Below, piece after piece: positions 2,935 through 18,878 of a DNA stretch of 49,370 nucleotides (within the stretch, counting starts at the first letter, position 1; each line of letters begins with the position of its first letter). Position numbers and translations under genes: made by a program. The DNA is from Chloroflexota bacterium (GTDB lineage: Bacteria > Chloroflexota > UBA5177), in NCBI GenBank assembly GCA_025449555.1, contig JANWJD010000030.1:1-49370 (forward strand). Direction: 5' to 3'. The notes beneath the pieces were generated by a model. That model searched no databases and was not told the origin of the DNA. It saw only the letters and a program-made list of their open reading frames with translations.

Positions 2935-3625
2935 CCCGGGCCTCCTCCCAGAGGACTTCATCCCGGCGTTGTTCAAGTTGCGCGAGCTTCAAGCGCTGCC
3001 CCAGCAAGAAGACGAACAGCACGGTGAAGGCGAAGAGATTGACAAACAGCGCGACCTCCATACGCGGATCGAGCGGCGCGTTCCCCAGGTTCGGCTGCAA
3101 GATGGTGGGAGCCTGATGCAGGCTCCTCCACCACAGCACCGACATATGAACGATCGGGATGTCAATAAATCCGATGATTCCTACTATGGCGGACTGTTTC
3201 GCCCGCGAGCGAGGATCTGCCGCCAGAGTACGTAACATCAGATAACCGGCGTAGATGACGAACAGGATGGCGGTCGTGGTCAAGCGCGGATCCCAGGTCC
3301 ACCACACTCCCCACACCGGTTTGGCCCACACTGAACCGACGGCCAGGGTGAGTGCGGTCAACAGTACGCCCAGTTCTGCCGCGGAACCCGCCAGGCGGTC
3401 CCACTTGAGGTCACGCTTCCAGAGGTACAAGACGCTTCCCACCAGTACCAGAAAGTACGCGAGATACGCTGTCCAGATAGTGGGCACGTGCATGTAGAGA
3501 ATCCGCATGGCATCGCCCTGATCGACATCCGGTGGAGACCACACCAGACCAAGGTACGCGCCGATCGCCATCGAGCCGAAAGCGGTCAATCCAAGCAGGC
3601 GTCCCTGCCTTTGTATCCATTCCAT
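2927..3625 (-). CDS. ccmC: Heme exporter / heme-delivery protein CcmC
   Basis: RILYMHVP, WWD motif WGVWWTWDPRLT, and WWRSLHQ; ATG at 3625 follows GGGGAG. Confidence 0.96.
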   Translation of the reverse strand: MEWIQRQGRLLGLTAFGSMAIGAYLGLVWSPPDVDQGDAMRILYMHVPTIWTAYLAYFLVLVGSVLYLWKRDLKWDRLAGSAAELGVLLTALTLAVGSVWAKPVWGVWWTWDPRLTTTAILFVIYAGYLMLRTLAADPRSRAKQSAIVGIIGFIDIPIVHMSVLWWRSLHQAPTILQPNLGNAPLDPRMEVALFVNLFAFTVLFVFLLGQRLKLAQLEQRRDEVLWEEARVV

Positions 3626-7514: not shown

Positions 7515-7616
7515 CGGGACATTGCCCGCACCCACATGGAGACTTACGTCTTTCTCCAGCGACGGAAGAATGTACCTATGTGCCATTGACTAAGGCTGGA
7601 GCACCGGAGGAATGCG

Positions 7617-8153
7617 ATGCACATACTTGACATGGACCGAGCGGGCATAGACAGCGGAGTCTTTGCGTTTTCGACCGAGTTTTACACTGAACACTTCGTC
7701 GTGCACGCGAGATTATCGAGTCCGGAGCGGAGACTGTCCGACCACCTCAACGGTTCGGTAGCATCGGTTGACATTCGACCAGTGTCCGCCCTGCAGCTCA
7801 ACACGGGAGTGTCAGCGGAATTGGGCAGAACGCACGCCCAGATTACAAAGGCGCGCATCCTGTTCGTCGTACCGATTTCCGAACCGGATCGTCCCAGCGG
7901 ACAGAGCAATGCGGCGTGGAAAGCAACGTCGAAGTACGGCGCCTGGGCCGGCGTGGGACCCTACAGCATCAGCGGGACCATTCACACCGATGCGGGGCGC
8001 GACCCGCAGATTGCGCTCCGGCTGCTCGACAAGCAATTTCTTCCGTTCACCGCCGTGACGATCACATTCCCCGACGGTGAAAAGAAACACTTCCCGACGA
8101 TCATCGTCAATCGCCAATACCTCGACCTGCTGGCGCTGGAGGCAGGCACGTAG
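7617..8153 (+). CDS. Hypothetical protein, DUF6812-like tandem domain
   Basis: GGAGG RBS; two similar halves (RRLSDHLN...QITKARILFV and GTIH...FLPFTAVTI...IIVNRQYLDLL). The family assignment is from memory only. Confidence 0.65.
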   Translation: MHILDMDRAGIDSGVFAFSTEFYTEHFVVHARLSSPERRLSDHLNGSVASVDIRPVSALQLNTGVSAELGRTHAQITKARILFVVPISEPDRPSGQSNAAWKATSKYGAWAGVGPYSISGTIHTDAGRDPQIALRLLDKQFLPFTAVTITFPDGEKKHFPTIIVNRQYLDLLALEAGT

Positions 8154-8173
8154 GTTATGCCGGCGTCGAGTGC

Positions 8174-8202
8174 TTGACTGAAATGTGGGCTCCGCCTATA
8201 CT
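8174..8202 (+). promoter_or_regulatory. Sigma70-type promoter of the aro/trp operon
   Basis: TTGACT (8174-8179), 17-bp spacer, TATACT (8197-8202). Confidence 0.85.
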
Positions 8203-8232
8203 TCCAATCAAGAAGCAGGAGTTTTCATAGTC

Positions 8233-8295
8233 ATGGCACTCCACGGGTCGGCGTCGGCCGATCGGTATTATTGGTTTTATAGGGGCATAACGTGA
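8233..8295 (+). CDS. Attenuator leader peptide MALHGSASADRYYWFYRGIT
   Basis: AGGAG at 8217-8221, ATG at 8233, five consecutive aromatic codons TAT TAT TGG TTT TAT (8266-8280), TGA at 8293-8295; upstream of aromatic amino acid biosynthesis genes. Confidence 0.9.
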   Translation: MALHGSASADRYYWFYRGIT

Positions 8296-8338
8296 CGGTT
8301 CTATAAGAGGAACCGCCCCTCACGTTATGCCCTTTTTT
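8283..8338 (+). promoter_or_regulatory. Attenuator hairpin 1 (protector/pause or first terminator)
   Basis: GGGCATAACGTGA (8283-8295) is perfectly complementary to TCACGTTATGCCC (8320-8332). Inner stem CGGTTC/GAACCG; followed by T6. Confidence 0.8.
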
Positions 8339-8370
8339 GACCGGAGGTTTTCACCTCCGGTCTTCTTTTT
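8339..8370 (+). terminator. Attenuator intrinsic terminator
   Basis: GACCGGAGGT-TTTC-ACCTCCGGTC 10-bp stem followed by TTCTTTTT, before the aroF start. Confidence 0.9.
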
Positions 8371-8420
8371 GCCTCACCAAGGAGAATCCCGTGATCGCGG
8401 TAGCAGAGGAGATTGGGAAT

Positions 8421-9434
8421 ATGATCATCGTCATGCAGAGCCATGCCGGCCCGGAGCACATCCGCAGCGTGGTACAGCGCATCGAGGAGATGGGATACCG
8501 ATCCAATGTCTCGGAAGGTGAGGAGACCACGATCATTGGCGTGATCGGACATAGCTCTCCGGATCAATTGGCTTCACTGGAATTCATGCCGGGTGTAGAC
8601 CGGATGGTCCCCGTCACCAAACCGTACAAACTCGGCAGCAGGGATTTCCGACCGAAGAGTACAGTGGTGCAGGTAGGTGACGCTCGCTTCGGCGGCGAAG
8701 CACTGGTTATGATCGCCGGTCCCTGCTCGGTCGAAAGTGACCACCAACTATGGGAGGCGGCACGCGCCGTCAAGGCAAGCGGCGCCCAGGTGTTGCGCGG
8801 TGGCGCTTTCAAGCCGCGTTCCTCTCCATACAGTTTCCAGGGACTCGGCAAGCCGGCCCTCGAGATGCTCGACCAGGTGGGCGATGAGTTGGGCCTCCAG
8901 GTGATTACCGAGGTGCTCACACCGGACGATGTCGACCTGGTCGCCTCATACGCAGACATCTTGCAAGTTGGCGCACGAAACATGCAGAACTTTACGTTGC
9001 TGCAGGAAGTTGGCCGCTCAGGTCATCCGGTGCTGCTCAAGCGTGGGATGAGCGCTACTCTGGAAGAACTGCTCATGTCGGCGGAATACATTCTGGCCAA
9101 CGGAAATGACAACGTGATCCTGTGCGAACGTGGCATCCGGACGTTTGAGGATTCCACCCGATTCACCCTGGACATCAGCGCGATTCCAGTGCTCAAACAC
9201 CTCACCCACCTTCCCGTCATCGTCGACCCGAGTCATGCCACCGGTAAGTGGGCGTTCGTGCCGGCGGTGGCCAAAGCGGGTGTAGCGGCGGGGGCGGACG
9301 GTCTCATCATTGAAGTTCACCCGCGACCCGAGGAGGCGTTGTCGGATGGGCCACAATCGCTGAAACTCGAACGATTCGCGCAACTCATGATTGAGTTGAA
9401 GCCTCTTGCCCTCGCGGTCGGCAGGTCCCTGTGA
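8421..9434 (+). CDS. aroF: DAHP synthase type I-beta with N-terminal ACT/ferredoxin-like regulatory domain
   Basis: MIIVM...IIGVIG N-domain; [37 protein letters not shown] and DPSH. Alternative in-frame GTG start at 8391. Confidence 0.96.
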
Positions 9435-10276
9435 CCCAACGCCGAGTAGCCGTGATCGGCCTCGGCTTGATCGGGGCGTCGTTGGGAGGAGCGCTGCGCG
9501 CTCGGGGCTACCTCGTGAGCGGGCTGGACCATGATCCAGCTACCATGCAAACGGCTCTGGATCGAGGTCTGGTCGACGTCGTCTCCGATGACTTGAGGGT
9601 GGTTCTGAAGGAAGCGGATCTGGTGATCCTCGCCATGCCCGTCCTCTCCATCATCGATACGCTGCCTCAGATCGATGAACTGTCGCGTCCCGGTGCCGTT
9701 ATCATGGACGTCGGCAGCGTCAAAGGACCGGTGGTTGACGCCATGGAACGGCTGCCGGGTGCGGGGCGGATGATCGGTGGACATCCCATCGCGGGCAAAG
9801 AACAATCGGGACCCGGCGTGGCCGATGTCTCGCTTTTCCAGAGACGTTCATTTGCGCTGGTGCCGAGCGGCGCGACGAGCATTCCCACCCTTCACACTGC
9901 CGAGTCAGTGGTTCGAGCGGTAGGGGGTGTTCCGGTCGTCCTCGCGGCCGTGGAGCACGACCGCATGGTCGCCATGACCAGCCACCTTCCGCAACTGCTT
10001 GCGACGGCCCTCGCGCTCTCAGTCGAGCCGCGCGATGAGAGTCTGGCCGGGCCAGGGCTGCGCGACATGACCCGGCTGGCGGCGAGCGGGGCAAGCATGT
10101 GGACAGATATTCTGGTGTCGAATGCCGACAATATTGCGGCTGCGCTCGGGGGGTGTGTGGCGCAACTTCAAAACCTGAGCACGATGGCAAGCGCCGGAGA
10201 TACGGTGGCACTGGAAGGTGCCATGACGCTCGCCAACGAACGTGCCGCCACGATCGCCGGTTCGGTGCCCTCGTGA
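9431..10276 (+). CDS. tyrA: Prephenate/arogenate dehydrogenase (no C-terminal ACT domain)
   Basis: [33 protein letters not shown] and [11 protein letters not shown]. Confidence 0.93.
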
Positions 10277-11553
10277 TGTGGCGCGTGCGTCCGTCCACGA
10301 TTGGTGGCTCGGCGTCCGTGCCGGGAGATAAATCTATCGCCCATCGAGCTTTGATGCTGGCCGGGCTCGCTCGAGGTACCTCCGTCATCCAGAATCTGCC
10401 GAGCGGCGAGGACGTCCGATCGACTGCGTCATGCATGGGTCGATTGGGCGTCGTACTCGACCTGCAATCCGGCAGCGCACGACTGGATTCGGCAGGCGAA
10501 CTGCGTGCACCCGAGCAAGAACTCAATGCGGGAAACTCGGGCACTACTATGCGATTGCTCGCCGGCATGCTCGCGGGCCAGACGTTCTCCAGCCGGCTGA
10601 CCGGTGATGCATCGCTCCGACGCCGTCCCATGGGAAGGGTGGTCGATCCTCTGCGCCAGATGGGAGCCTTGATTGCCACTCGCGACGGTTGCGCACCGCT
10701 CGATATCGCCGGCAGCAATCTCCACGGAATCACCTACACCTTGCCCGTCGCGAGCGCTCAAGTGAAGTCGGCGGTGCTGCTGGCGGGACTCTTCGCGACC
10801 GGCACGACCACGGTGATCGAGATCGTACCGGCCCGAGACCACACGGAGCGGATGCTCACTGCGTTGGGTCTGAACGTGCGACGACATGGGATGTCGGTCC
10901 AGGTCGAACGCGGCACACCTCCGAACGGATTCGAGCTGACGGTTCCGGGTGATATCTCATCCGCCGCATTTCTTTTGGCGGCTGCAGCCGTCACGGATGG
11001 CGCAGTGTCGCTGGATTCGATTGGGTTGAATCCTACTCGAACCGCCATTCTCAGTGTGCTCGAGCGGATGGGAGCTTCCGTCACTGCCGCGATAGAGCGA
11101 GAAGAGACCGGTGAGCCACGCGGATCAATCGCCGTGAGCGGCCGCATCGAGCGCCCGATCTGCCTCTGTGCGGAGGATGTCCCAGGGTTAGTGGATGAGC
11201 TCCCGTTAATCGCCCTGCTCGCCACCCAGGTCGCGGGTGAAAGCGTGATCGAAGGGGCAGCGGAGTTACGCGTAAAAGAAGCTGACCGGATCGCGGCGGT
11301 CACACAAGAACTTCAGGTGCTGGGAGCCGATATCGAGGAGAGACCGGACGGGTGGCGCATTCATGGCAAGAGACCGTTGCGAGGCAGAAAGGTGCAGAGT
11401 CACGGCGACCACCGCCTGGCTATGATGCTTGCAGTCGCGGGAGCGTGCGCCCAGGGAGAGACCACCATCGAGGGCGCCGAGGCAGCCGATGTCTCGTTTC
11501 CCGGGTTCGCCTCAGTCTTTGCGTCGCTGGGAGCCGCGATTGATGAAGATTGA
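10276..11553 (+). CDS. aroA: EPSP synthase (class II)
   Basis: PGDKSIAHRA, GNSGTTMRL, SAQVKSA, RDHTERM, ELRVKEADR and DHRLAM; TGATG coupling to tyrA. Confidence 0.96.
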   Translation: MWRVRPSTIGGSASVPGDKSIAHRALMLAGLARGTSVIQNLPSGEDVRSTASCMGRLGVVLDLQSGSARLDSAGELRAPEQELNAGNSGTTMRLLAGMLAGQTFSSRLTGDASLRRRPMGRVVDPLRQMGALIATRDGCAPLDIAGSNLHGITYTLPVASAQVKSAVLLAGLFATGTTTVIEIVPARDHTERMLTALGLNVRRHGMSVQVERGTPPNGFELTVPGDISSAAFLLAAAAVTDGAVSLDSIGLNPTRTAILSVLERMGASVTAAIEREETGEPRGSIAVSGRIERPICLCAEDVPGLVDELPLIALLATQVAGESVIEGAAELRVKEADRIAAVTQELQVLGADIEERPDGWRIHGKRPLRGRKVQSHGDHRLAMMLAVAGACAQGETTIEGAEAADVSFPGFASVFASLGAAIDED

Positions 11554-12391
11554 TCGATTCGTGGTGATCGGCGACCCGATTGCGCACAGCCTGTCGCCGG
11601 TGATGCATCGTGCCGCCTTCGCCGCCGCGGGTGTCGACGCCACGTACGAGAAGGAACGGGTTTCCCCCTCCTCACTCGGTACGTGGGTTCAAGCCGCACG
11701 GGAGCGACCACTTGCCGGCTTCAATGTCACCATTCCGCATAAGGAATCGATCGGCTCATACGTCGACGAGCTGGACGAATCCGCTCGACGCGTGGGCGCC
11801 GTGAACACAGTCGTTAACCGCGACGGCGTGCTGACCGGATACAACACCGACCTTGCGGGCTTCATTGCTACGGTGCGATCTCTCGAAGTGGGACTGCGAG
11901 GGCAGCCGGTGGTGGTGATCGGAGCCGGGGGGTCGGCCGGAGCGGTCGTGCGGGCTCTGGACGATCTAGGCGCGCACGTGACCATCTGCAATCGACACGA
12001 AGGCAACGCCCGCAATCTGGCCGGGAGGCTTTCGATCCCGGCGACGACCATGGAACTCCATAGTTCCGCAGCACGACACGCCATCGAAAGTTCTCGTCTG
12101 GTGGTCAATACCACACCGCTTGGAATGAGCCATTTGCCGGTGTCGCCGCTTCCAAACGAGACGTATCTGAATCGACGAACGGCGGTCATTGACCTGGTGT
12201 ACGGGCTGACGACACCGCTCGTCACGCAGGCTCGGGCCGCGGGTTGCCTGGTGCTCGACGGGATTGAGATGTTGGTCCAGCAAGGCGCCGCTAGTTTCGA
12301 GCTATGGACCGGCGTGGCGCCGGACCTGGACGTCATGCGGGCAGCCTGCAGGCACTCATTCAGGGAGGTAGATCGATGCTCCGTTTCCTGA
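11543..12391 (+). CDS. aroE: Shikimate dehydrogenase
   Basis: GDPIAHSLSP, NVTIPHK, GAVNT, GYNTD, GAGGSA and DGIEMLVQQG. Confidence 0.95.
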   Translation: MKIDRFVVIGDPIAHSLSPVMHRAAFAAAGVDATYEKERVSPSSLGTWVQAARERPLAGFNVTIPHKESIGSYVDELDESARRVGAVNTVVNRDGVLTGYNTDLAGFIATVRSLEVGLRGQPVVVIGAGGSAGAVVRALDDLGAHVTICNRHEGNARNLAGRLSIPATTMELHSSAARHAIESSRLVVNTTPLGMSHLPVSPLPNETYLNRRTAVIDLVYGLTTPLVTQARAAGCLVLDGIEMLVQQGAASFELWTGVAPDLDVMRAACRHSFREVDRCSVS

Positions 12392-13491
12392 CCGCCGGTG
12401 AGTCGCACGGTCCCTCCCTCACCGGCATCCTCGAAGGCATGCCGGCCGGCCTGCAGGTCGATACGCACTTGATCGACCGCGATCTGGTTCGCCGCCAGGG
12501 AGGCTATGGACGCAGCGGGCGCCAGAAGATCGAAAAAGATCACATCGATTGGCTGTCGGGCATGGAAAATGGCTGCTCGACCGGAGCGCCCATCGCGATG
12601 AGAATCGAAAACCGAGACTATGCGAATCAGCAAAAACGCGAAAAGCCGGTGTTGACTGTGCCGCGACCGGGACACGCCGACCTGGCGGGCGCCACCAAGT
12701 ATCGATTGGCAGACATGCGAACCGTGCTCGAACGAGCAAGTGCACGTGAGACGGCTATGCGGGTTGCGGTGGGAGCGCTCGCCAAACGGTTGCTCAGCGA
12801 GTTTGGGATCGTGGTGGCGGGCCAGGTCATTTCAATCGGCGATGAAGTAGTGCAAGGCGCGGATCTCGCGGATCCTGCAGTCCGTGATCGCATTGAAGTA
12901 TCAGAAGTACGTGTGGCCGATCCGGAGGCGGAACGGCGCTTCATCGAGCGGATCGACCAGGCCCGGCGTGACCGCGATACGCTGGGTGGCGTGTTCGAGG
13001 TGCAGGTTCTCGGCGTGCCGGTGGGCCTGGGGAGCTATGTGCAGTGGGATCGCAAATTGGACGGCCGGCTGGCGCAAGCAGTCATGAGCATCCAGGCGAT
13101 CAAGGGAGTCGAAATCGGCGCAGGGTTTGAGAACGCGCGGACGCCGGGCACCAGGGCGCACGATGCGATTCTGCCGGGTGAGAGCGGTCCGCAACGTGGC
13201 AGTAATCGCGCCGGGGGCCTGGAGGGCGGCGTGACCAATGGCGAACCGGTCATCGTGCGAGGGGCCATGAAGCCGATATCAACGACTTTGACTCCCATGC
13301 AGAGCATCGACGTCCGGACCGGGGAGGGCGCGCTGGCGCAGTATCAGCGATCCGACATCTGCGCCGTTCCTGCCGCTTGCGTGGTAGGCGAGGCGATGGT
13401 GGCGTTCGTCATGGCAGACGCGGTATTGGAAAAGTTTGGCGGTGACAGTATTGCTGAAATACACGAACACTTCAAATCGGTGGCGCGGTGA
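12376..13491 (+). CDS. aroC: Chorismate synthase
   Basis: MLRFLTAGESHG, PRPGHAD, ERASARET, NRAGGLEGG and RSDICAVP. Confidence 0.97.
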   Translation: MLRFLTAGESHGPSLTGILEGMPAGLQVDTHLIDRDLVRRQGGYGRSGRQKIEKDHIDWLSGMENGCSTGAPIAMRIENRDYANQQKREKPVLTVPRPGHADLAGATKYRLADMRTVLERASARETAMRVAVGALAKRLLSEFGIVVAGQVISIGDEVVQGADLADPAVRDRIEVSEVRVADPEAERRFIERIDQARRDRDTLGGVFEVQVLGVPVGLGSYVQWDRKLDGRLAQAVMSIQAIKGVEIGAGFENARTPGTRAHDAILPGESGPQRGSNRAGGLEGGVTNGEPVIVRGAMKPISTTLTPMQSIDVRTGEGALAQYQRSDICAVPAACVVGEAMVAFVMADAVLEKFGGDSIAEIHEHFKSVAR

Positions 13492-15059
13492 GGAACCTGA
13501 TTCTGACCGGCTTCATGGGGACTGGAAAGACCACGGTTGGCCGCATTTTGGCTCGTCGCTTCGGCCTGGAATTTCTGGACACGGACGATGAGATCGAGCG
13601 CACATGCGGTTGTAGTGTGGCCGAGCTATTTGCCCGCGACGGCGAGAGCTGTTTCCGCCAACTGGAAACGCAAATATTCAGTGAGGCGCTTCAGGCGTCC
13701 GGGCAAGTGATCGCCACGGGCGGGGGAACGCTCTTGAGCGGGAGCAACCGTCTGCTCCTGGGGTCCGACCAGGAGGTCGTGTGCCTGACCTGCGACCCGG
13801 ATACCATAGCGCAACGCGTCGGCGATGCACGCCAGCGTCCACTGTTTGACCCGCGGCAACCCCGGAAGGTAAGAACCCTGCTGGCGGAACGTGAGCCCGT
13901 TTACTCTCTCTACTCGCAGGTGGACACTACCAACAGATCGCCGGAGCAGGTTGCCCAGGCAGTCACAGATTTGATCCCGCTGGCTGAAGCCGCTGCCTTC
14001 GACCTCACCCAGACCCAGCAGTCGAGGGTTCTGTTCGAAGCCGGACTGTTGCCGCGTGCCGGCACGACTCTGGCGCGACATGGCTTGACGGCTTCGGTCC
14101 TGGTGCTCACCGATTCCACGGTAGCCGGCCTGCCCATCTTCAACGCGATGCGAGCGTCGCTCGCAGCCGCGGGGCTCGACACTCACGTCCACACGATCCA
14201 TCCGGGAGAGGAGCATAAAACGCTTCAGACCATGGACGGCGTCTACCAGGCAGCAATGCAGGCGAGACTGGATCGCTCCTCCACCGTGTTGGGAATGGGC
14301 GGCGGCGTCGTGGGAGACATGGCCGGTCTGCTGGCGGCAACCTACCTGCGCGGACTGAACCTGGTGCTGGCTCCGACGACGTTGCTGGCGCAGGTGGATG
14401 CGGCGATTGGCGGCAAGGTCGGCGTCGACTTTCATGCGGCGAAGAACATGATCGGGGCTTTCAAGCCGGCCAATCTGGTACTGATCGATCCAGCCGCCCT
14501 CCGGACGTTACCGGCCTCGACCCTCGCGGAAGGGTTGGTGGAAGTCATCAAGATTGGGTTCATGTGCTCCCAAGCCTTGATCTCGCAGCTGGAAGAAGTC
14601 ACGCTGGATGACGTGCTCGAGCACCCGCAGATCATTCGAGCCGCCGCTCATCAGAAGGTTGAGATCGTGCAGCGCGACCCACTCGAGCGCGGCGACCGGA
14701 TGCTGCTGAACTTCGGACACACCATCGGCCATGGGCTGGAAGCGGCCAGCGCATACCGGCTCTCGCACGGACAGGCGGTGAGTATCGGCATGGTGGCGGA
14801 GACGCGCCTGGCCGTGACCCACGGCTGGTGCGCCGAGTCGACGCTGGAGACTCTTCGCTCGCTGCTTGCTCGATTTTCGCTGCCGACTGAGGTCGGGCAC
14901 ATAGACTGTGACGCAGTCTTACGCTTCGTGGGTCAGGACAAAAAGCGACGGGCAGGCGCGATCCGGCTGGCGATTCCGCGAGACATTGGGGACGGGGCCG
15001 TGGTCGAGGTTTCACTCGACGATGTGCGATCGGCATTGACCGAAGGCGCGAAGGTGTAA
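13488..15059 (+). CDS. aroB: Bifunctional shikimate kinase / 3-dehydroquinate synthase (AroK-AroB fusion)
   Basis: N-terminal GFMGTGKTT, GExxFR, ATGGG and RPL; C-terminal [31 protein letters not shown] and DKK. Confidence 0.95.
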
Positions 15060-15060
15060 C

Positions 15061-15504
15061 GTGGCCTCGATCCTCGTCTTACACGGCCCGAACCTCAACT
15101 TGACCGGCACGCGTGAGCCGGAAATTTACGGACGCACCACACTGGCCGAAATCGATGAACGACTCCACGCGGTGGCGCGAGAACGTGGCGCCGTCATTCG
15201 CACGACGCAGTCAAACCACGCAGGGGTGCTGATTGATACGCTGCATGAGGTGCGGAACTGGGCCAACGGGTGCATATTCAACCCCGGTGCGTTCACACAC
15301 TACAGTTACGCCCTGCGAGACGCGGTCGCGGCGGTTGACTACCCAGTGGTGGAGGTCCATATGTCGCTCCCGGCGGCCCGCGAAGCGTTTCGTCACACGT
15401 CGGTCATCGCTCCGGTCTGTCTGGCACAGGTGGCCGGTTTCGGGGCACGCAGTTACGATCTGGCATTGCTCGGGTTATTGCAGAGCCTGGAGGGACGAAC
15501 GTGA
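15061..15504 (+). CDS. aroQ: Type II 3-dehydroquinate dehydratase
   Basis: [32 protein letters not shown] and EVHMS. Confidence 0.96.
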
Positions 15505-15857
15505 AGGCGCTGCGCGGCGCGATCACTGCACATGCCAACACGGAAGAGGCGATCATCGATGGTACCCGTACCCTGCTGTCATGCCTGGTGGAGCGTAACC
15601 ACCTGACTCTCGAGGAAGTCGTCAGCGTCTTCTTCACGTTGACGCCGGATCTCAATGCGTGTTTCCCCGCACGTGCTGCGCGCGAGATGGGATGGGATGT
15701 GCCGATGCTGGACATGCAAGAAATCGACGTGCCCGGGGCCCTGGCGTTCTGCATTCGGGTTCTCGTGCACGCAGAAATCAACCGGCCGCCGCGCCATGCG
15801 TACCTGCGCGGTGCGGTCAGCCTTCGTCCGGACCTTGAAACAGAGAGTGCACCATGA
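15501..15857 (+). CDS. aroH: AroH-class chorismate mutase
   Basis: [27 protein letters not shown] and H.YL.GA..LRPDL. Confidence 0.95.
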
Positions 15858-17305
15858 ACAACGACTATTTCCCCTCCCTCGGGGAGTGCCGGCGAATCGG
15901 TATGACCGGCTACCCGATCGCCATTTCCCGGGAAGTCTTCGCCGATCTCGACACGCCGGTGTCCGCCTATCTGAAAGTGCGCGAAGCCGGGCCGAGCTTC
16001 CTCCTGGAAAGCGTGGAAGGCGGTCAGAGCCTTGGCCGATACTCCTTCATCGGGTCACGTCCACGCCGCGTCTTGCGCGTGGCCGGTGGGATGCGCCGCT
16101 TCGACGATGATCCTCCCATTCTCTGTCCGGATCCACTCCAAGCGATTCGCGCGATGGTCGACGCCTACGGTCCTTCACCGGCCCCAGATGCTCGCTTTGC
16201 GGGCGGCGCGGTGGGTTACCTGAGTTATGAAGCCGCTCGCTGGTTCGAACGGATTCCGCTGGCCCCGGAAGATCCATTGGGACTTCCGGATGCGGTATTC
16301 CTCGACGTCGATACTGTCCTGATTTTCGACCACGTGCGCCGCAAGATTCGCATCGTGAGTCATGCCTGGCCGTCCGCATCGATCGAACGGTCGTACGGCT
16401 GTGCGGCCGATCGAATCGACGAGATCGCGGAGCGCCTGGAGCGCCCGGTGGATGCTCCGCCGCTGCCGCCGCCGGTGCACCTGCAACCGAGCAGCAACCT
16501 CGAGCCGTCGGAGTTCGAGGATATGGTGGTCGCCGGCAAGAAACATATCCGAGCCGGCGACATACTGCAAATCGTACTGTCGCAACGTTTGAGCATGCCG
16601 CTGGAGGGCGACCCCTTCGGGCTGTATCGGCGGCTTCGCACCGTCAGCCCTTCACCGTATATGTATTATCTCGACCTGGGTGACCATCAATTAGTAGGTG
16701 CTTCACCCGAATTGCTCATCCAGGTGGAGGACGGAGTCGTCTCGAGCAGGCCGATTGCCGGTACACGACGACGCGGCAGGAATCGCGAAGAGGATATGGC
16801 CCTGGCCAGGGATCTGGTCGAGGATGAAAAGGAGCGAGCCGAACACCTCATGTTGGTCGACCTCGCGCGGAACGATGTCGGACGGGTGAGCGCGGCGGGC
16901 ACGGTCGAAGTATCGAATTTCATGGGCGTGGAACAGTTCTCACATGTCATGCATCTGGTCTCGGATGTGACCGGCCGCCTCGGAGCGGACTTTTCGCCCT
17001 ACGACGCGCTACGCGCCGCGTTTCCCGCCGGCACGGTGTCCGGAGCGCCAAAAATTCGGGCGATGCAGATCATCTCCGAACTTGAACGTGACCAGCGCGG
17101 CTCCTACGCCGGAGCGGCCGGATTCATCGGCAAAGGCGGCAACATGGAAACCGCCATCACGATTCGAACGGGTCTGATCAAAGGTGGTGTGCTCCACCTG
17201 CAGGCCGGAGCGGGCATCGTGGCGGACTCGGTGCCGGAGCGGGAGTACGGCGAATCCATGAATAAGGCGCGGGCCATGTTGGAAGCCGCGGGAGGCGCAG
17301 CATGA
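15854..17305 (+). CDS. trpE: Anthranilate synthase component I
   Basis: LLES and SPSPYM Trp-feedback motifs; PIAGT (PabB usually has PIKGT); EHLMLVDLARND and GAPKIRAMQII. Confidence 0.88.
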   Translation: MNNDYFPSLGECRRIGMTGYPIAISREVFADLDTPVSAYLKVREAGPSFLLESVEGGQSLGRYSFIGSRPRRVLRVAGGMRRFDDDPPILCPDPLQAIRAMVDAYGPSPAPDARFAGGAVGYLSYEAARWFERIPLAPEDPLGLPDAVFLDVDTVLIFDHVRRKIRIVSHAWPSASIERSYGCAADRIDEIAERLERPVDAPPLPPPVHLQPSSNLEPSEFEDMVVAGKKHIRAGDILQIVLSQRLSMPLEGDPFGLYRRLRTVSPSPYMYYLDLGDHQLVGASPELLIQVEDGVVSSRPIAGTRRRGRNREEDMALARDLVEDEKERAEHLMLVDLARNDVGRVSAAGTVEVSNFMGVEQFSHVMHLVSDVTGRLGADFSPYDALRAAFPAGTVSGAPKIRAMQIISELERDQRGSYAGAAGFIGKGGNMETAITIRTGLIKGGVLHLQAGAGIVADSVPEREYGESMNKARAMLEAAGGAA

Positions 17306-17877
17306 TCTTGTTGATCGACAATTACGACAGCTTCACTTACAACCTATATCAAGTGCTGTCGGTGCTCGGGGCTGAAGTTCGGGTAGAGCGCAATGACGCG
17401 ATCTCGGTTGAGGAGGTTGTACAACTTCGGCCGGACGGAATCGTGGTCTCGCCCGGTCCCGGCAATCCGGGAGAGGCAGGAATATCGTGCCGGCTCATGC
17501 GCGAAGTGGGGCCATCGATTCCCACACTGGGTGTCTGCCTGGGCCATCAGTGCATCGCCGCCGCGTTTGGCGGTAACGTGGTCGGTGCTCCGGTTCTGAT
17601 GCACGGCAAGACCTCCCAGGTCTTTCATACTCAGGCCGGCGTATTGGCGCGACTGCCGTCGCCGTTCCAGGCCGTCCGGTACCATTCGCTGACGGTCGAC
17701 GAATCGTCCTTGCCCGCGTCGTTGGAGGTGACGGCTCGCTCCGAAGATGGGACCATTATGGCATTGCGCCATCGCGAATACCCCATCGAGGGTGTGCAGT
17801 TTCACCCCGAATCCGTGTTAACGCTCGACGGGCCGCAACTCCTCAGCAATTTTGTCGCCATGTGTCGCCGGCCATAG
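17302..17877 (+). CDS. trpG: Anthranilate/aminodeoxychorismate synthase component II (glutamine amidotransferase)
   Basis: IDNYDSFTYN, SPGPG, GVCLGHQ, RYHSL and QFHPES. Confidence 0.92.
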   Translation: MILLIDNYDSFTYNLYQVLSVLGAEVRVERNDAISVEEVVQLRPDGIVVSPGPGNPGEAGISCRLMREVGPSIPTLGVCLGHQCIAAAFGGNVVGAPVLMHGKTSQVFHTQAGVLARLPSPFQAVRYHSLTVDESSLPASLEVTARSEDGTIMALRHREYPIEGVQFHPESVLTLDGPQLLSNFVAMCRRP

Positions 17878-18029: not shown

Positions 18030-18878
18030 CTACGCCAGAGCCTCGCTCGTGGCGACGGGCGCGAACAGATCGGTCTCCCGCTCACCAGCCATGGGTGGAG
18101 GCAGGACTCGAACGAAATACTCCACACCCGATCCAGCCGCGAGCGCTTCGTCAGGGATCTGCAAGTAAAAGAAGTCCGGTCGAATTTGCGTCCGGTGGAC
18201 TGCGAGGGCCTGCTTCTTGAGGCCGACAAACGGTTCGACGTCGATATGCGCGGTGATCTCCGCGTCCGGCACGCCGTATTCGTCGAAATTGAAATCTCCG
18301 TCGATCCACGGGACGGTCAACCCGTGCTCCTTGATGGCCTCCACGTAGCGGCGAAAGCCCTCCCGGGAGCGAGCTGAATAGTAGAGTTTGCGCGGGGCGT
18401 CGGGTTCCCCCTGGAGTTTTTGAAACGCTTCGACTGCGATGCGGTGCGCCATGATGTGGTCAGGATGACCGTATCCGCCCTCCTCATCGTACGCGATCAT
18501 GACCTGCGGTTGCGTCGTTCGGATGATCCCGATCAGGCGTTCGGTCGCCTCGTCAAGCGCTGCATTGGCAAACGCGGCCGGATGGGTGTTCTCCTCGGTA
18601 TCCTTCATGCCGGAGTCGCGATACCCGAGAAACATTACATCGGTTACGCCCAGTAACGCGCACGCTTTGCGGGCCTCCTCCATGCGGATCTCACCCAGCC
18701 GGGGTATCGCTTCGTCCGCCACGAGGTCCTCGTCGTGCATCTCACCCGCTTCCCCGTTCGTGCAGTACACCACGACCACCCGATCACCCTGCTGCGCGGA
18801 CTTGGCTAGGATGCCGCCGGTTGAAAACACTTCGTCATCGGGGTGCGCATGCACCGCCATCAAGCATCGATTTGCCAT
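18030..18878 (-). CDS. PIG-L family deacetylase (MshB/Mca/BshB-like)
   Basis: VHAHPDDE, TNGEAG, YRDSGM, GGYGHPDH and ALAVHRTQ. Confidence 0.92.
   Translation of the reverse strand: MANRCLMAVHAHPDDEVFSTGGILAKSAQQGDRVVVVYCTNGEAGEMHDEDLVADEAIPRLGEIRMEEARKACALLGVTDVMFLGYRDSGMKDTEENTHPAAFANAALDEATERLIGIIRTTQPQVMIAYDEEGGYGHPDHIMAHRIAVEAFQKLQGEPDAPRKLYYSARSREGFRRYVEAIKEHGLTVPWIDGDFNFDEYGVPDAEITAHIDVEPFVGLKKQALAVHRTQIRPDFFYLQIPDEALAAGSGVEYFVRVLPPPMAGERETDLFAPVATSEALA

Follow-up and report, generated by a model that had tools for sequence, protein, structure and literature searches.

A conserved aromatic leader-peptide element of apparently unusual wiring upstream of the aroF-trpG operon in a soil Chloroflexota bacterium

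The window analyzed here, a stretch of 49,370 nucleotides (nt) that covers positions 1 to 49,370 of contig JANWJD010000030.1 (assembly GCA_025449555.1), carries a short leader directly upstream of aroF, the first of ten genes of aromatic amino acid biosynthesis. This leader is a real and conserved regulatory element of a soil Chloroflexota bacterium. Its principle is a known one and its design is not unprecedented, but its wiring looks unusual. The element most probably functions as a ribosome-mediated, leader-peptide attenuator, which senses aromatic tRNAs and allows more read-through into the aroF-trpG operon under starvation. A probability of about 0.78 is assigned to this reading. It rests on the anatomy of the leader, its conservation, the match between its codons and the genes that follow, and the precedent of aroR-aroF in Corynebacterium glutamicum.

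A translatable short open reading frame (ORF) with a ribosome-binding site is located between a promoter and aroF, and an intrinsic terminator, T, stands between this leader ORF and aroF as the first structural gene (Table 1). Promoter, AGGAG ribosome-binding site, 20-codon ORF, five consecutive aromatic codons and a terminator ahead of aroF had all been named in the initial annotation of this DNA, and each of them is confirmed by sequence and fold. The promoter is the sole site matching 10 of 12 positions that a promoter scan returned between 7500 and 19000, and relatives carry comparable promoter hexamers at the corresponding position. Based on its location, the leader transcript is expected to start near 8209-8211. 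The RNA of positions 8205-8375 folds at -79.4 kcal/mol (z = -8.4), a value as low as which was found in none of 200 shuffled sequences, and the fold consists of three successive hairpins, P0, P1 and T, none of which overlaps another. The initial annotation had spoken of overlapping hairpins; this was not recovered, as the three are consecutive and no overlapping alternative structure is supported. P1 begins 1 nt past the last aromatic codon and harbors the leader stop within its 5' arm. T follows P1 after five to six nt. The stem of T is followed by UUCUUUUU, the tail reaching position 8370 reads TTCTTTTT, and T stands 20 nt 5' of the ribosome-binding site of aroF. P0 and the U-rich codons behind it were flagged as terminator-like (seven pairs, then GGTATTATTG). 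A hairpin at the position of P0 is present in most members of the family and may serve as a pause hairpin for RNA polymerase, by which ribosome and polymerase are synchronized.

Runs of aromatic codons of this kind are rare in the genome, a Chloroflexota metagenome-assembled genome (MAG) of 3.68 Mb that is 84% complete. Among 7.36 million six-frame codons only 13 runs of at least five consecutive aromatic residues occur. Eight of them lie within frames of at least 148 codons and the other five in stop-to-stop frames of 21-94 codons. Only the aroF leader combines such a run in a short ORF with a ribosome-binding site before it and a terminator and a gene after it. A scan of 3067 terminator-like sites of the genome yielded 76 small-ORF candidates, and none in this genome except the aroF leader showed a convincing run ahead of a biosynthetic gene. 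A second run of five aromatic residues, FWYWW, is encoded on the minus strand at 3439-3453. Its stop-to-stop frame measures 75 codons, features of a leader are missing, and the run is probably an out-of-frame artefact.

The initial annotation had suggested looking for upstream ORFs (uORFs) with aromatic runs ahead of aroF in relatives. An ORF of 6-45 codons was counted if it held at least four aromatic residues in a window of six. From 40 other genomes of the phylum 29 aroF loci were obtained, 28 of which had upstream sequence (L008 had none). Such a uORF precedes aroF in 15 of these 28 loci, compared with 1/28 on the reverse strand and 0-3/28 in 30 shuffles, so that the suggested check supports the leader. 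Short ORFs are common, and a Shine-Dalgarno spacing of 11 nt is long, both of which would suit an ORF that arose by chance within a structured 5' untranslated region. However, the excess of 15/28 over 1/28 on the reverse strand, together with the singular context of this run among the 13 in the genome, makes such an origin very improbable.

A covariance model, R1, was built on 11 leaders. Within the order it has exactly one match per genome in 12 of 16 genomes, and each match is located next to aroF. Of the four remaining genomes, three, which are 64-90% complete, gave no aroF match by this query either. One genome of the sister family (G015, 75% complete; locus L012) has aroF but no recognizable leader or R1 match and differs in this from its congener G013. 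The closest named aroF record, from a MAG labelled 'Chloroflexi bacterium', shares 75% identity and corresponds to the contig range of the relative G005. A scan of metagenomes yielded aroF relatives with identities of 62% or less, and this type of leader was not encountered again.

The arrangement of run, stop codon and hairpins is conserved as well. In 12/12 leaders of the order 1-8 nt lie between the end of the aromatic run and P1; the gap is 1-3 nt in this genus and in the leader L004, and 4-8 nt in the second family of the order. All 12 leader stops are placed between -2 and +22 nt from the first paired base of P1, which is 46-54 nt long with -26 to -38 kcal/mol. Since the stop codon is placed at or inside P1, a ribosome that completes the peptide must open this hairpin. 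Conversely, because the run ends before P1, most or all of this hairpin stays available for folding when the ribosome is held on the aromatic codons. The distance from P1 to the maximally extended stem of T is 0-5 nt in 12/12 leaders. To the 10-pair consensus stem of T it is 6 nt in this genus.

P1 and T are real structures, supported by compensatory change. In the alignment of the 11 leaders 15 of 27 pairs in P1 plus T show changes on both sides, and 94.9% of cells are paired. None of 500 column shuffles reached the observed values, and controls with slid alignments were only 34-46% paired. P1 alone has 10 of 17 pairs changed on both sides, T alone 5 of 10 with 100% of cells paired, and T is followed by a U-rich tail in 12/12 leaders of the order. 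P1 also keeps features beyond pairing, namely three invariant G-C pairs at its base and a conserved C-rich bulge. Its U(G/A)ACG is near-invariant and persists even in the two leaders in which it is not the stop codon. This indicates that the UGACG of P1 is conserved as RNA and not merely as a stop codon, since it persists in leaders with a shifted stop. L123 (G007) and L007 have a changed UGACG or one outside the reading frame, with the leader stop shifted to the apical region of P1. The U run after P1 is restricted to the three genomes of this genus, where P1 resembles a first terminator because U6 follows it. The aroF frame is open 5' of its GTG through the 3' arm of P1 and T (8307-8390), with an in-frame TTG at 8337, and relatives likewise have 22-60 extra open codons upstream of aroF. 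This open frame is probably a by-product of the G+C-rich hairpins.

The ten genes behind the leader abut or overlap by a few bases, and their order is identical in all four relatives examined, which comprise one member of the same genus, another of the family and two from the sister family. The earlier claim that the leader precedes the common shikimate pathway together with the entries to the Tyr and Trp branches therefore stands: tyrA, aroH and trpE/trpG are all part of this packed operon. By Pfam, aroKB is a fusion of aroK and aroB, and aroH is a chorismate mutase of type I. The codon content of the leader fits the operon, which contains tyrA and trpE/G and no prephenate dehydratase gene. 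A search of this 84%-complete assembly for the prephenate dehydratase domain PF00800 gave no match. Among the genomes of the family 7 of 12 carry it, and these include the two others of the same genus. Four pheA loci were read (L205-L208). All lie away from the operon, three have a same-strand long frame ending within about 100 nt upstream, and no aromatic uORF stands directly ahead of the PF00800 gene in any of the four.

Among the leaders of the order the N-termini of the peptides vary freely, while the runs YYWF(Y/H), YYWY, YYWW, YWYW, WYWW, WYW and FYYWF are kept and the TGG column of the alignment is invariant. Thus clustered codons for products of the operon are conserved in a peptide that otherwise varies. 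The main run contains Tyr and Trp in 12/12 leaders and Phe in 6/12. As Phe occurs in only half of the runs and pheA, in the relatives checked, is located elsewhere without a leader, the conserved core of the element is, judged from these sequences, a Tyr/Trp sensor, which this genus and some others have extended by Phe. The designation 'tri-aromatic' thus applies to this genus, but not across the order. The unpublished genome G004 is the source of L006/L120, which counts among the 12 leaders, and of the pheA locus L207, and it enters the counts 12/12, 6/12, 15/28, 12/16 and 7/12.

Of the Trp branch, the aromatic leader covers the first step (trpE/G) only. A trpA gene was located on another contig (C194; L204), directly behind a 405-codon ORF that is probably trpB. 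A second paralogue of 3-deoxy-D-arabino-heptulosonate 7-phosphate (DAHP) synthase, 56% identical to the aroF product encoded at 8391, is found on the minus strand of contig C3 (28926-29939). The two other genomes of the genus also have a second DAHP synthase paralogue.

Table 1. Features of the aroF leader region and of the operon behind it (positions in the window).
Feature	Position	Strand	Details
Sigma-70-type promoter	8174-8202	+	TTGACT (8174-8179), 17-nt spacer, TATACT (8197-8202)
Shine-Dalgarno-like AGGAG	8217-8221	+	11 nt ahead of leader ATG at 8233
Leader ORF	8233-8295	+	20 codons plus TGA; peptide MALHGSASADRYYWFYRGIT (8233-8292); stop TGA 8293-8295
Hairpin P0	8246-8263	+	within leader ORF, directly 5' of the U-rich aromatic codons; in fold
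Regulatory codons Tyr-Tyr-Trp-Phe-Tyr	8266-8280	+	TAT TAT TGG TTT TAT, codons 12-16 of leader ORF
Hairpin P1	~8282-8333	+	52 nt, about -33 kcal/mol; C-rich bulge on 3' side
U6 run (TTTTTT)	8333-8338	+	directly after P1
Intrinsic terminator T	8339-8370	+	stem 8339-8362: 10 pairs, 7 G-C, loop of 4
aroF	8391-9434	+	GTG start 8391; AAGGAG 8379-8384; Pfam DAHP_synth_1 and DAHP_snth_FXD (ferredoxin-like domain)
Operon aroF-tyrA-aroA-aroE-aroC-aroKB-aroQ-aroH-trpE-trpG	8391-17877	+	ten genes, Pfam-named; trpG 17302-17877
Convergent PIG-L family gene	18030-18878	-	closes off operon

A mechanism can be proposed from this arrangement. The promoter at 8174-8202 would start a leader RNA of about 160 nt, on which the five aromatic codons are placed between the small hairpin P0 and the long hairpin P1. 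As long as charged tRNA-Tyr, tRNA-Trp and tRNA-Phe are plentiful, the ribosome would reach the UGA inside P1 and keep this hairpin open, and T would terminate transcription. If one of the three tRNAs ran short, the ribosome would be held on the aromatic codons, P1 would fold, and more polymerases would pass T into the ten genes. The direction of this response, in which shortage leads to read-through, is taken by analogy from the logic of known biosynthetic leader peptides, and a folded P1 is presumed to make T fail.

Several observations weigh against an attenuator of this kind. No terminator-excluding helix that depends on the position of the ribosome was found. When a ribosome footprint was masked at the second aromatic codon, the last aromatic codon or the stop, T formed in every state in 10 of 11 sequences, which are those whose modelled RNA included T; the RNA of the window itself ended before T. 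The sole alternative helix common to the 11 aligned sequences, between YUGGY at the Trp codon and ACC(G/A)G of the 5' arm of T, points in the wrong direction. In this genus P1 is followed by U6, which conflicts with read-through from a folded P1, because a folded P1 should then itself terminate. The 12 leaders are not independent, as all belong to one order and three to one genus. Finally, according to the available part of one report, the C. glutamicum attenuator is acted on by limitation of Phe and not by the availability of Tyr (PMC11802643). By analogy, not every aromatic codon of a leader need be sensed, which is a caution for the OR gate for three charged tRNAs that the initial annotation had proposed. 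A look-up of RNA runs covering positions 7600-9600 listed none, which speaks neither for nor against the attenuator.

The search for an antiterminator covered several candidates. In a classical attenuator a ribosome stalled at the last aromatic codons would melt the base of P1, and the freed 3' strand of P1 would briefly pair with the 5' arm of T. In the window about 10 pairs, interrupted by two internal loops, are possible between these two segments at -7.1 kcal/mol, which is within the range of the Escherichia coli trp antiterminator, and in relatives the pairing amounts to -3.9 to -15 kcal/mol. The gap of only 1-3 nt between run and P1 in this genus and L004 would also place a stalled ribosome suitably. 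However, the pairing was never better than in dinucleotide shuffles of the P1 strand (300 for each sequence), with z values of +0.10 to +1.46 that are above zero in 11/11 sequences, and the consensus of the alignment over this stretch is only -1.5 kcal/mol without a shared register. With the gap of 4-8 nt in the second family a stalled ribosome would hardly touch P1. Furthermore, a ribosome waiting at the stop opens P1 more than a stalled one, so that read-through would occur in times of plenty, the wrong direction for a classical device. A classical antiterminator of this type is rejected as a conserved element, and as a weak, variable pairing it is rather doubtful. The complementarity between the 3' arm of P1 and the 5' arm of T lies below the shuffled mean in 11/11 sequences, as would be expected if T had to remain undisturbed by an opened P1.

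Other partners for T were rejected. Pairing of the 5' part of the leader and the 5' arm of P0 with either arm of T was at chance level (mean z 0.03 and -0.05). The helix of YUGGY with ACC(G/A)G, which encloses P1, has five pairs with many G-U, leaves the nucleating half of T free, and cannot be a starvation signal because it would be covered by the stalled ribosome. By eye, pairing of CCUC in the C-rich bulge of P1 with GAGG of T occurs in only 5 of the 11 aligned sequences, the P1 loop and the U tail show no conserved pairing, and a pseudoknot between the inner arm of P1 and T is sterically unlikely. In transcripts ending before the 3' arm of T, no consistent partner for the 5' arm of T was found in the stalled states. 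A weak or kinetic antiterminator helix may exist.

A second set of aroF leaders indicates that this approach detects classical antiterminators where they are present. MAGs of Acidobacteriota and metagenomes contain aroF homologues of 51-59% identity that are preceded, at a distance of 140-200 nt, by a uORF mixing Tyr, Trp and Phe. These peptides include ..SYRFSFWF.., ..YWFRFS.. and ..FYWYRF.. and share a recurring R-F motif. The loci assigned to this type are L046, L071, L072, L074, L075, L078, L088, L099, L100, L134, L163, L165, L176, L185 and L201, and 12 of these 15 were scanned against Rfam without a match. A terminator, CCCACUCG..CGAGUGGG, is conserved among these leaders. Its 3' arm recurs as a copy (GAGUGG) at or just after the leader stop, and from there this copy can pair with the 5' arm of the terminator. 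Judged from sequence, this arrangement is a textbook classical antiterminator. The upstream hairpin is 20-45 nt (by eye) apart from the terminator, whereas in the 12 leaders of the Chloroflexota order P1 and the maximally extended stem of T are separated by 0-5 nt. The Acidobacteriota leaders form part of the positives in two wider counts of aroF uORFs, 15/80 (reverse strand 6, shuffles 1-7/80) and 14/77 (reverse strand 3, shuffles 0-6/77). Another part of these positives, in particular from A+T-rich loci of Firmicutes, is noise, since the shuffle background overlaps with the counts.

For the Chloroflexota leader, an effect of P1 that does not involve pairing is preferred, because P1 and T share no strand and their mutual complementarity is, if anything, avoided. 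We tentatively suggest that a folded P1 close to T could act as a ribosome-gated antiterminator without base-pairing to T. It could sterically block the last pairs of T at the exit channel of the polymerase or act on the polymerase itself, and a ribosome at the stop codon inside P1 would unfold the hairpin and thereby restore termination. This view is in line with the short spacing between P1 and T in all 12 leaders and with the conservation of the bulge and the base of P1.

The same features of P1 could be explained if the hairpin were bound by a trans-acting factor, be it a protein or a small molecule, which decides on termination at T while translation of the leader modulates access to P1. 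The G-C pairs at the base, U(G/A)ACG and the C-rich bulge are kept beyond plain pairing, and no antiterminator made of RNA only was found. However, no candidate regulator gene is linked to the locus, where the upstream gene has only a sub-threshold match to DUF6812. Rfam 15 gave six matches at E values up to 10 between 7000 and 20000, all to microRNA or small RNA models far below their gathering scores, and none at the gathering score in 17 related loci. Moreover, the conserved aromatic codons and the placement of the stop are fully explained only by sensing through a ribosome. A trans-acting factor is therefore considered unlikely.

It is also conceivable that the uORF is translated without a role in termination. 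T would then be a constitutive partial terminator, and the uORF would affect mRNA stability, translation of aroF or nothing. The folding of T in every modelled ribosome state whose RNA included it is consistent with this. The proposal that many leader genes serve re-initiation instead of regulation, as put forward in the accessible portion of one paper (PMC4833913), was also counted in its favor. On the other hand, no part of the peptide other than the aromatic run is conserved, the distance from run to P1 and the stop inside P1 are conserved, and the stop of the uORF is about 95 nt from the start of aroF with the terminator in between. In addition, similar aromatic leaders with a clear antiterminator precede aroF in Acidobacteriota. 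A uORF of this kind is thus quite improbable, and a ribosome-mediated attenuator is retained as the most probable explanation of the leader.

If so, one translational sensor would tie together the whole common aromatic pathway and the entries to the Tyr and Trp branches in an uncultured order of Chloroflexota. At least three phyla have mixed aromatic leaders ahead of DAHP synthase genes, namely the Actinomycetota, for which they are published, the Chloroflexota and the Acidobacteriota. For genome annotation, the covariance model and a simple rule can mark such leaders, which are absent from Rfam 15. For the study of mechanism, the element provides a compact natural case of about 160 nt, in which a sensor hairpin and a terminator that are both supported by covariation share no strand. 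Should the link between them prove non-classical, it would add to the known routes by which translation governs termination and be distinct from the competition of alternative helices. If a weak helix suffices instead, the element would set a lower bound on the pairing that an antiterminator needs.

C. glutamicum belongs to the Actinomycetota, and the primary study of its aroR attenuator is reportedly that of Neshat et al. from 2014. According to the available portions of two papers, aroR encodes a leader peptide with the motif Phe-Tyr-Phe and is a studied attenuator before an aroF operon (PMC11802643, PMC7356990); its response, as described there, is to limitation of Phe, with none to the availability of Tyr (PMC11802643). 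A uORF with Phe codons, uORFC-13-1, has been predicted before aroF in Acholeplasma (Brewer et al. 2021, PMC8632094, as far as the accessible text describes it). The initial annotation knew of no characterized example of such a design, a statement that does not hold in view of these two systems. Descriptions of aromatic leaders from Chloroflexota or Acidobacteriota were not found in the literature searched, and the survey of Lopatovskaya et al. (2010) may list some.

As far as the portions of the papers on aroR go, both it and the Chloroflexota element place a mixed aromatic leader before a DAHP synthase gene, and in aroR stalling of the ribosome raises transcription of the operon. This likeness is one of function, as the comparison was made with the quoted motif Phe-Tyr-Phe and not with the sequence of the leader RNA or peptide. 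The quoted motif has no Trp, whereas Tyr and Trp are constant in the Chloroflexota leaders, which are followed by ten genes including tyrA and trpE/G and have no detectable antiterminator. The element of Acholeplasma, compared by its description in the accessible text, resembles the leader in having a uORF directly 5' of a terminator stem before aroF and an extra conserved base-paired element. It differs in that it belongs to another lineage, that Phe codons alone are noted for it and that it is a computational prediction.

The layout of promoter, codon-bearing ORF, hairpin and terminator is shared with the classical trpL and pheL leaders. These consist of a promoter, a short ORF with codons for the end product, a hairpin that contains these codons or comes after them, and an intrinsic terminator ahead of the first gene. 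However, they sense one amino acid and control a terminal branch, and their terminator shares a strand with the antiterminator, whereas P1 and T share none and the alternative pairings tested are at chance level. For the non-pairing action of P1 the put sites of phage HK022 may serve as a model. They are cis-acting antiterminator RNAs, in which a folded hairpin causes the polymerase to ignore a nearby terminator without pairing to it. They are a model for this one step only and show no sequence or Rfam similarity to the leader. Thus the Chloroflexota element probably functions like a member of the leader-peptide attenuator class but differs from it in its wiring.

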